In this document: positions 14,760-15,021 of the stretch, piece after piece
How positions within the stretch are numbered: position 1 is the stretch's first letter
Layout: each line of letters opens with the position of its first letter
Virus record (IMG/VR): IMGVR_UViG_3300025011_000043
Coordinates: 1-61,652 of that record
Strand: one strand, 5' to 3'
Origin: a virus
Taxonomy: Duplodnaviria > Caudoviricetes
Length of the DNA stretch: 61,652 bases
Translations under genes and position numbers: made by a program
The notes under the pieces: generated by a model
Databases searched by the model: none
The model's input: the letters and a program-made list of their open reading frames with translations, nothing else
What the model was told of the DNA's origin: nothing

Positions 14760-14846
14760 GCGGTGAGGACTGGCGGGGATTGGAACGGTGAGGTGTGGAT
14801 AGGCGAGGCAAGGATAGGAACGGTGAGGTGTGGCAAGGTAAGGGAT
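14760..14846 (+). ncRNA. Guide-like array 1: 17 GGH-NN pentamer units
   Basis: GG at every 5th position from 14762 to 14842 without exception; NN variable. Confidence 0.85.
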
Positions 14847-14907
14847 CGAAACGGTGCTTTGCACCGTCTGTCGGGATTCGTCAACCCGACACTGATGAGA
14901 TTGACGA
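14844..14907 (+). ncRNA. Type II hammerhead ribozyme with pseudoknot
   Basis: GAAA 14848, stem III ACGGTGC/GCACCGT, GUC cleavage site 14866-14868, stem I TGTCGGG/CCCGACA, CTGATGA 14892-14898, short stem II, loop TCGTCAA complementary to TTGACGA 14901-14907. Confidence 0.92.
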
Positions 14908-14914
14908 TAACAGC

Positions 14915-15021
14915 TCGGTGTGGCGGGGATCGGTCTGGTAAGTCATGGCGAGGATTGGACAGGACTGGCGAGGTACGGCGGGGCGAGGTATGTTGTGGTG
15001 CGGTTTAATAAGGTATGGTAA
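14915..15021 (+). ncRNA. Guide-like array 2: 21 pentamer units (18 GGH, 2 GTY, 1 AAT)
   Basis: 5-nt periodic GG from 14917 to 15017. Confidence 0.85.

Follow-up and report, generated by a model that had tools for sequence, protein, structure and literature searches.

Two tracts of pentameric repeats, vrRNA1 and vrRNA2, are located shortly upstream of the tape-measure gene on the genome of a tailed phage (Duplodnaviria, Caudoviricetes; IMG/VR record IMGVR_UViG_3300025011_000043), whose complete stretch of 61,652 nucleotides is referred to here as the window. The tracts are very probably the guide parts of two vrRNAs of a phage-borne VIPR system that targets the tape-measure gene of a rival. 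Each unit consists of a GGH triplet (H being A, C or T) followed by two variable bases (NN), and at the sequence level both guides spell codon positions 1 and 2 of the tape-measure gene of sibling phages when one nucleotide is skipped after every pair. Vipr is a minimal RAMP which polymerises on GGY/NN vrRNAs with one protomer per repeat (10.64898/2026.04.26.720920, 10.64898/2026.04.26.720927, 10.64898/2026.10.15.759431); VIPR was described only in 2026 and has been proposed as the viral ancestor of the CRISPR RAMP effectors. The locus is a VIPR system and, because such systems are described in the 2026 preprints, it belongs to a kind known since April 2026 and not to a new one. What is new here are the natural targets, the empty site and a pattern of flank targeting that makes RNA-guided homing testable. 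The locus is a clean natural example of a nuclease-bearing, apparently ribozyme-processed VIPR on a complete phage genome in which both guides can be assigned to one gene, the sibling tape measure, and for which sequences are available of the empty site, of putatively immune own alleles and of foreign targets with near-perfect matches.

The repeat tracts and the Vipr protein

The tracts have 17 and 21 units, compared to the minimum of four tandem GGY/NN (YNNGG) units beside vipr that characterises a VIPR array, and begin 10 nt past the stop codon of vap, the accessory gene for a small HNH nuclease. The original prediction had described GG in 17 of 17 and 18 of 21 units, a fixed GGH scaffold with a variable payload, and the binding of one RAMP subunit per pentamer. 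Its periodicity is confirmed by the sequence and by phased counts over the whole window, and its NN strings agree with the sequence for both arrays. Elsewhere in the window, at positions that do not overlap the arrays, phased GG counted in a sliding stretch of 17 units reaches at most 7/17, and the minus-strand equivalent (phased CC) at most 5/17. With a caller threshold of at least six phased GG the two tracts are the sole arrays in the window on either strand, and the phased-GG caller returns no array from 250 kb of sequence in 32 unrelated control loci. Tandem Repeats Finder reports neither array in the window because only two of the five positions are fixed. Position 3 of the 35 GG units is T in 15, A in 10, C in 9 and G in 1, a pyrimidine in just 24 of the 35, so that the consensus is accurately given as H rather than as a strict Y and is slightly broader than the GGY of the preprints; across the family the corresponding counts are C 668, T 416, A 124 and G 51. 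The closest relative, L033, whose Vipr and HNH proteins are 87% and 80% identical to those of the window, has the same layout of array, hammerhead ribozyme, array and terminator and keeps the array positions with other NN strings, as expected of a fixed scaffold with a variable payload. An open reading frame (ORF) at 14763-15008 is present in the window and would encode an 81-amino-acid Gly/Arg-rich repeat protein, but a 5-nt period is incompatible with a coding frame, the ORF crosses the hammerhead, and in L033, L002 and L006 every frame over the arrays contains one to eight stops (five to eight in L033). A coding role is scarcely credible and is rejected on account of these stops in relatives.

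The 208-amino-acid protein encoded upstream is a RAMP, as the original prediction had supposed. It matches the SUSP1 Vipr protein (PDB 36pp_D; phmmer E 1.7e-6, residues 90-195) and phrog_4652 (function not annotated; E 1.6e-14) and has no Pfam match. An AlphaFold2 model built from an alignment of 40 homologues (pLDDT 81.8) was used in place of a single-sequence model (pLDDT 35), and in Foldseek it retrieves Csm3/Cas7 chains from CRISPR complexes of types III and VII (E 1e-9, TM 0.47-0.58). The G-loop reads GIGDGRSVGYGRF, R185 and R143 are invariant in 40/40 homologues, and SUSP1 residues R138, D177 and R179 align with R143 (40/40), D183 (30/40) and R185 (40/40) of the window protein. The Vipr family comprises 1,207 proteins at E <= 1e-3, from which 75 distinct homologue loci were drawn from IMG/VR and GTDB genomes after four duplicate loci had been dropped. 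At least one array, defined by at least nine phased GG, is present in 58 of these 75 loci compared to none in the 250 kb of controls, with 91 arrays on the vipr strand versus 9 on the opposite strand. The condition named as refuting the original prediction, namely that arrays elsewhere lack an association with RAMP homologues, is thus contradicted by these counts. By analogy, one RAMP subunit per pentamer agrees with the cryo-electron microscopy structure of SUSP1, in which each GGY/NN repeat carries a single protomer (10.64898/2026.04.26.720927), and the interpretation first put forward is supported as essentially right.

Like the Cas7/Csm3 filament of class 1 CRISPR-Cas, Vipr combines an RRM/RAMP fold (Foldseek E 1e-9) and a G-rich loop and, according to the VIPR preprint, polymerises along a guide RNA whose bases are flipped periodically. 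The guides differ in that the window has a period of 5 nt with two pairing bases and thus a gapped guide, whereas CRISPR has a period of 6 nt with five pairing bases. A CRISPR-Cas system was considered and rejected: Tandem Repeats Finder reports no CRISPR-like repeat in the window, and no cas family, including cas1, cas2 and cas10, was found among the 10 neighbouring ORFs, to which the scan was confined.

Guide code and tape-measure targets

In the VIPR preprints the NN bases pair with DNA while skipping every third base, usually the codon wobble position, the natural targets are competing phages and satellites, and an NN match of at least 80% serves as the target threshold. For scoring, the GGH triplets were stripped, the NN bases were joined with zero to three wildcards and both strands were scored. 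Six sibling loci (L043-L048, 60 kb) were obtained via homology to the tape-measure protein. In 6/6 siblings the best vrRNA2 site coincides with tape-measure codons 3-20 (25-28/36 NN bases), and in 6/6 the best vrRNA1 site (21-25/28) falls in frame at a single homologous position, ~953 nt into the gene, and covers codons ~319-334; at the sibling sites of both guides the skipped base falls in frame on the wobble position. With a skip of 1 nt the observed maxima are 25 for vrRNA1 and 28 for vrRNA2 compared to null maxima of 21 and 24, neither observed value being reached by any of 300 shuffled guides (0/300), and skips of 0, 2 and 3 nt stay within the null given by 300 shuffled guides on the six loci. 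Exact scans of viral and metagenome contigs with units 7-15 of vrRNA1 retrieved 24 loci, eight of which encode a tape-measure homologue and match the guide at 25-27/28, the other 16 remaining at chance level (17-22/28). In L049, L050 and L051 vrRNA1 matches at 27/28, or 31/32 over units 1-16, with the peptide ELGLTQVYDKYTEVNK, and its in-frame scores are 26/28 in L058, 25/28 in L043 and 24/28 in L048. Exact scans of viral contigs with vrRNA2 sub-patterns gave either no match or chance ones in L042 (29/42, not a tape measure) and L073 (21/36), and the guides of L033 found no target in the 845 kb of loci searched. The 1-nt-skip code is hereby independently reproduced in a distant clade, the Vipr of the window being weakly similar to that of SUSP1.

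Read as codons, vrRNA2 gives V G S L (N/K) (I/M) (D/E) (F/L) (H/Q) L (D/E) T G (D/E) (I/M) V A (F/L), and the tape-measure protein of the window itself reads VGSLNVDLVLDTSDMIAS at this site. When the window is scanned with its arrays masked, vrRNA2 with a 1-nt skip alone stands out. The site from 15083 onward, about 60 nt downstream of the array, is the best in the window under this skip, is equalled by 0/100 shuffles and has the skipped base at codon position 3. No self-target reaches 80%, the best matches in the own genome, with arrays masked, being 18/28 (64%) for vrRNA1 and 25/36 (69%) for vrRNA2. At the sequence level, the own tape-measure gene has diverged at both guide sites. The vrRNA2 site of the window itself has 11 mismatched bases, 5 of which are located in Ser (TCN versus AGT) or Leu (CTN versus TTA, TTN versus CTC) codons; under the 1-nt-skip code, Ser and Leu codons (TCN/AGY, CTN/TTR) would provide an escape route in which the first two bases change and the amino acid is kept.

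The spelling of codons bears on a different view of the arrays, namely that they are a non-guiding protein sponge or a structural RNA or DNA, acting by TRAP- or CsrA-like titration or folding into two-tier G-quadruplexes of the form (GGNNN)n. A GG every 5 nt could in principle give two-tetrad quadruplexes, and the fact that TRAP-type proteins bind triplets 2-3 nt apart counts in favour of a sponge. Neither model predicts, however, that the NN bases spell codon positions 1 and 2 of a specific foreign gene at 27/28, and the arrays co-occur with a RAMP homologue. Both the sponge and the quadruplex are rejected because the NN bases spell foreign codons, and such a role is considered highly improbable.

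The inserted cassette and its nuclease

The guides are part of a cassette (Table 1) that lies in a siphovirus tail operon, with the genes for the G/T tail chaperones (12113-12813) on one side and that for the tape measure (15078-17423) on the other. The six siblings keep the order major tail protein, G, T, tape measure and next two genes at 53-87% amino acid identity, and vipr and the HNH gene are missing from 6/6 of these syntenic relatives (tblastn). The alignment of L043 and L048 to the window extends as far as ~13075-13095 and resumes at ~15075; the segment from ~13096 to 15070 is extra in the window, because the alignment stops at ~13095 and restarts at ~15075.

Table 1. Positions of the cassette, its parts and the own tape-measure sites in the window
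Feature	Position	Strand	Basis
Inserted segment (HTH gene, orf96, vipr, HNH, vrRNA array), ~2 kb	13096-15070	.	Alignment to cassette-less siblings
80-amino-acid helix-turn-helix (HTH) protein, weak VanU/XRE-like match	13079-13321	-	NCBIfam NF000090 E 6e-6, under curated cut-off
Sigma-70-like promoter TTGACA-17-TACAAT, 11/12	13368-13396	+	Consensus scan only
orf96	13416-13706	+	No Pfam, PHROG or NCBIfam match
vipr, 208-amino-acid RAMP (Cas7-like), predicted to polymerise on GG repeats	13858-14484	+	phmmer, PHROG, AlphaFold2, Foldseek
vap, 96-amino-acid HNH nuclease, 23-nt overlap with vipr	14462-14752	+	Pfam PF01844, 29.1 bits (cut-off 21.4)
vrRNA1 repeat tract, 17 GGH/NN units	14762-14846	+	GG phased in 17/17 pentamers
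Type II hammerhead ribozyme, predicted cleavage after GUC, 14868/14869	14844-14909	+	Rfam RF02276
vrRNA2 repeat tract, 21 units, GG in 18	14917-15021	+	Phased pentamer count
Terminator-like hairpin followed by U-run	15018-15060	+	RNA fold -17.3 kcal/mol, z -6.8, 0/200 shuffles as stable
Own tape-measure codons 3-20, diverged copy of vrRNA2 target, 25/36 NN	15083-15136	+	1-nt skip
Own tape-measure counterpart of vrRNA1 target, diverged, 14/28	16013-16063	+	Homology to sibling site

The hammerhead predicted between the arrays matches its Rfam model over the full length (36.3 bits, E 2.7e-5). The GAAA and CUGAUGA cores and the GUC triplet are present, stems III and I of 7 bp each agree with the minimum free energy fold, and stem II, as judged by eye, consists of 4 bp only. 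At the gathering threshold Rfam makes no call in the window, and among 39 related loci it detects no hammerhead. A structural regular expression gives 15 matches in six distinct loci, namely the window, L033 (identical to L001), L006 (two), L080 (seven), L083 (two) and L099 (one), whose stem sequences vary with pairing and architecture kept. Downstream of array 2, a simple terminator scan does not call the hairpin at 15018-15060. The promoter in Table 1 could, judging from its consensus match, drive orf96, vipr, the HNH gene and the vrRNAs. The HTH protein has no homologue in L043-L048, and tblastn finds no homologue of orf96 outside the window among 42 loci, which means that it is not kept alongside vipr.

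The HNH protein has the beta-beta-alpha-metal motif, whose catalytic His, Asn and His and zinc-binding Cys pairs are present in a conserved form: D41, H42, N51, H64, C26 and C60 are invariant among 25 homologues, and C29 and N55 are kept in at least 90%. The best-conserved part in these homologues is the C-terminal tail RHRGMI..DGIIPPNWRELVW. The HNH gene adjoins vipr in 74/78 loci, and in structure prediction the two proteins form a complex with an ipSAE of 0.70 (runs of 0.66, 0.70 and 0.73) versus 0.18 for the best control, with 100% contact agreement between runs and a partner pLDDT of at least 86. An ipSAE of 0.70 is attained by 58/80 solved complexes and 2/110 mismatched pairs, counts that are rough as they rest on the analysts' own alignments. 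The modelled interface pairs HNH residues 73-90 with Vipr residues 76-83 and 164-177 and supports, as a prediction, that Vipr and HNH bind each other. The protein resembles the HNH domain of IscB (NCBIfam NF040563, a partial match at E 1.6e-7, far under its cut-off). The IscB/TnpB (OMEGA) systems share with the locus the idea of an RNA-guided nuclease borne by a mobile element and have an IscB-like HNH, but here the HNH is a separate protein of 96 amino acids without RuvC and the guide is a pentamer repeat on a RAMP polymer, not an omega RNA. The genes vipr and vap overlap by 23 nt (14462-14484) in the window and in many relatives, an arrangement which suggests translational coupling; in other relatives (e.g. 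L012, L014 and L025) the array sits between the vipr and HNH genes.

It is proposed, by homology to SUSP1, that Vipr protomers grip each GGH, one per pentamer, and thereby form a helical filament which would present the two variable bases of each unit for pairing with DNA, every third base being skipped. A gapped R-loop or triplex and the ensuing silencing would be as in the published homologue. A single transcript is predicted to be cut by the hammerhead between the arrays, and its products would be a vrRNA1 with a 3' hairpin and a vrRNA2 with a 5' hairpin leader and a 3' terminator hairpin. The filament would then recruit the small HNH nuclease via the conserved C-terminal tail, and the complex would cut or at least silence the tape-measure gene of a rival that is co-infecting or resident, from which the carrier would gain an advantage. 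The last step could also be limited to transcription, the same VIPR being a silencer only, as was shown for SUSP1, and the HNH having another job or no catalytic role in targeting. The VIPRs characterised experimentally act by repression, and the vrRNA2 site on the first tape-measure codons is well placed for blocking transcription. Pure silencing is nonetheless rather unlikely, as it leaves aside the invariant catalytic and zinc residues of the HNH, its adjacency to vipr in nearly all loci, and the complex model which puts the conserved HNH tail on Vipr; target destruction is moreover proposed for the nuclease-bearing types (10.64898/2026.04.26.720920).

The guide-based, nuclease-bearing system outlined above agrees with the published VIPRs in its small SUSP1-related RAMP, its adjacent GG pentamers with hypervariable NN bases, its phage-borne location, the 1-nt skip at the wobble position and the competing-phage targets. 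The preprints distinguish seven VIPR types that differ in their accessory (vap) genes, and hammerhead-interspersed arrays (types I and V, legend of fig. S19) and HNH-containing Vaps (legend of fig. S21) are likewise on record (10.64898/2026.04.26.720920). A further preprint lists 99 VIPR-like clusters, non-canonical pentamers included (10.64898/2026.10.21.760802). The window differs in its array lengths of 17 and 21 units, compared to a stated 9-16, and in its setting: according to the preprints an enrichment in host defence islands is seen for the nuclease-bearing types III and V, whereas the window cassette lies in a phage tail operon and is aimed at the homologous gene of siblings.

Several observations weigh against this interpretation. 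A is tolerated at position 3 in 10/35 units of the window and the SUSP1 pocket reportedly excludes purines; in addition, SUSP1 W178, which stacks on G2, is replaced by Gly (G184, 38/40 homologues). Taken together these two differences suggest that the repeat-gripping pocket may, on sequence evidence, be somewhat different from that of SUSP1 in detail. The six sibling loci were fetched by homology to the own tape-measure protein and are mutually related, and they do not constitute six independent tests. For vrRNA2 the best match is 28/36 (78%), which is under the 80% line, and its exact allele was not found in the collections searched. The hammerhead score lies slightly under the Rfam gathering score of 37, and the promoter scan called no promoter directly upstream of vrRNA1.

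Flank targeting and possible homing in the wider family

Across the family, 7 of 88 guides from 55 loci show a partial match to their own flank at p <= 0.01 (200 shuffles each; ~0.9 expected), with the proviso that the loci are mutually related and that the choice of ORF was made by the analyst. Of these seven significant matches, 6 lie within 400 nt of the cassette edge versus 11/74 of the guides with p > 0.1 (expected fraction 0.15; Fisher p = 2e-4), and in all non-window cases (6/6) the skipped base occupies the third codon position in the longest covering ORF. In 6/20 other loci (L002, L004, L006, L008, L022 and L074) the cassette is immediately followed by a tape-measure ORF; other downstream ORFs encode a ligase, clamp loader, RecT or methyltransferase. 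Among the upstream ORFs, some encode the large terminase subunit or the major capsid protein and a single one encodes a type ISP restriction enzyme. In L006 the guide proximal to the tape measure matches the own downstream tape-measure gene at an offset of 29, in phase and at 16/20 (0/100 shuffles), and the guides of L002, L004, L008, L022 and L074 have no significant match in the available part of theirs.

The seven matching guides and their closeness to the cassette would also be expected if the likeness between guides and flanks arose from the birth of guides by copying of neighbouring sequence, or from self-regulation of neighbouring genes, and had nothing to do with attack on a rival. Such an origin is improbable given that vrRNA1 scores 27/28 on foreign tape-measure genes versus 14/28 on the own gene, and that the conversion of codons into GGH/NN units by copying has no known process.

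The flank-targeting pattern suggests a homing element, of which it is the expected appearance, other origins being possible. The cassette of the window abuts the tape-measure gene, its vrRNA2 site begins 6 nt into the gene and the best match to an empty allele is 78%. Tentatively, and with less than even likelihood, the vipr-HNH-vrRNA cassette may be an RNA-guided homing element whose guides are aimed at the flanking-gene alleles of cassette-less siblings. A cut by the HNH nuclease during co-infection would then be repaired from the carrier, and the cassette and the linked immune allele would be copied into the rival. Free-standing HNH homing endonucleases occur in phages, for example those encoded by the mob/seg genes of T-even phages. 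The locus resembles these in having a small HNH gene in a cassette between conserved genes that is present or absent among syntenic relatives, and in having the putative target beside the insertion site in cassette-less relatives and a diverged site in the carrier. The difference is that the target would here be chosen by an RNA-guided RAMP filament and not by a DNA-binding domain of the nuclease itself. The word 'homing' was not found in the main text of the VIPR preprints searched for it (10.64898/2026.04.26.720920, 10.64898/2026.10.15.759431 and 10.64898/2026.10.21.760802). If true, homing would connect VIPR with nuclease cassettes that spread selfishly and provide a testable function for the HNH accessory protein.

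The cassette has no match by blastn in the phage collection, an alignment of the tape measure against genome contigs found no relative, and none of the listed sequencing runs that contain the stretch is recorded as RNA. Both the tail genes and vipr have divergent relatives on contigs of four DNA runs; no contig in these runs spans the cassette, the parts uncovered in run X4 being uninformative. Contigs from these groundwater runs (X1-X4) carry a divergent vipr variant over window positions 13903-14349 (87 differences in 447 nt), and the relatives of the tail genes are ~80-90% alike. Several sibling phages with at least two vipr alleles therefore co-occur.

Several minor features accompany the cassette and its relatives. 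At 12818-13075 on the minus strand of the window, between the T gene and the tape measure, lies an ORF of 85 amino acids whose two ends carry CxxC pairs and whose middle is hydrophobic; it is ~44% identical in L043 and L048 and missing from L044-L047, which have other filler of ~0.5 kb there. The 3' ends of many arrays, e.g. window 14832-14846 and those of L002, L010, L012, L014 and L025, are made up of near-identical GG(C/T)AAGG(C/T)AAGG units before the tail or hairpin, which suggests a conserved 3' nucleation or capping signal; the terminal AA AA units of vrRNA1 also agree with the L049 target. A TGATATA(T/A)A motif, seen by eye only in the context of a promoter upstream of vrRNA1, is common to the window, L033 and L002. 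In L002 (3997-4064) the arrays are parted by a hairpin together with another copy of the TTGATATAAA motif, which also precedes array 1, with no hammerhead, and each vrRNA may have its own promoter in this locus. A contig of Marinithermofilum abyssi (L080:4870-5711) has seven successive hammerheads downstream of vipr-HNH, in an array far longer than that of the window. In a Bacillota metagenome-assembled genome (L099:34-3318) the vipr-HNH cassette is located directly downstream of a type ISP restriction-modification enzyme, a setting that is defence-island-like and unlike the tail setting of the window.

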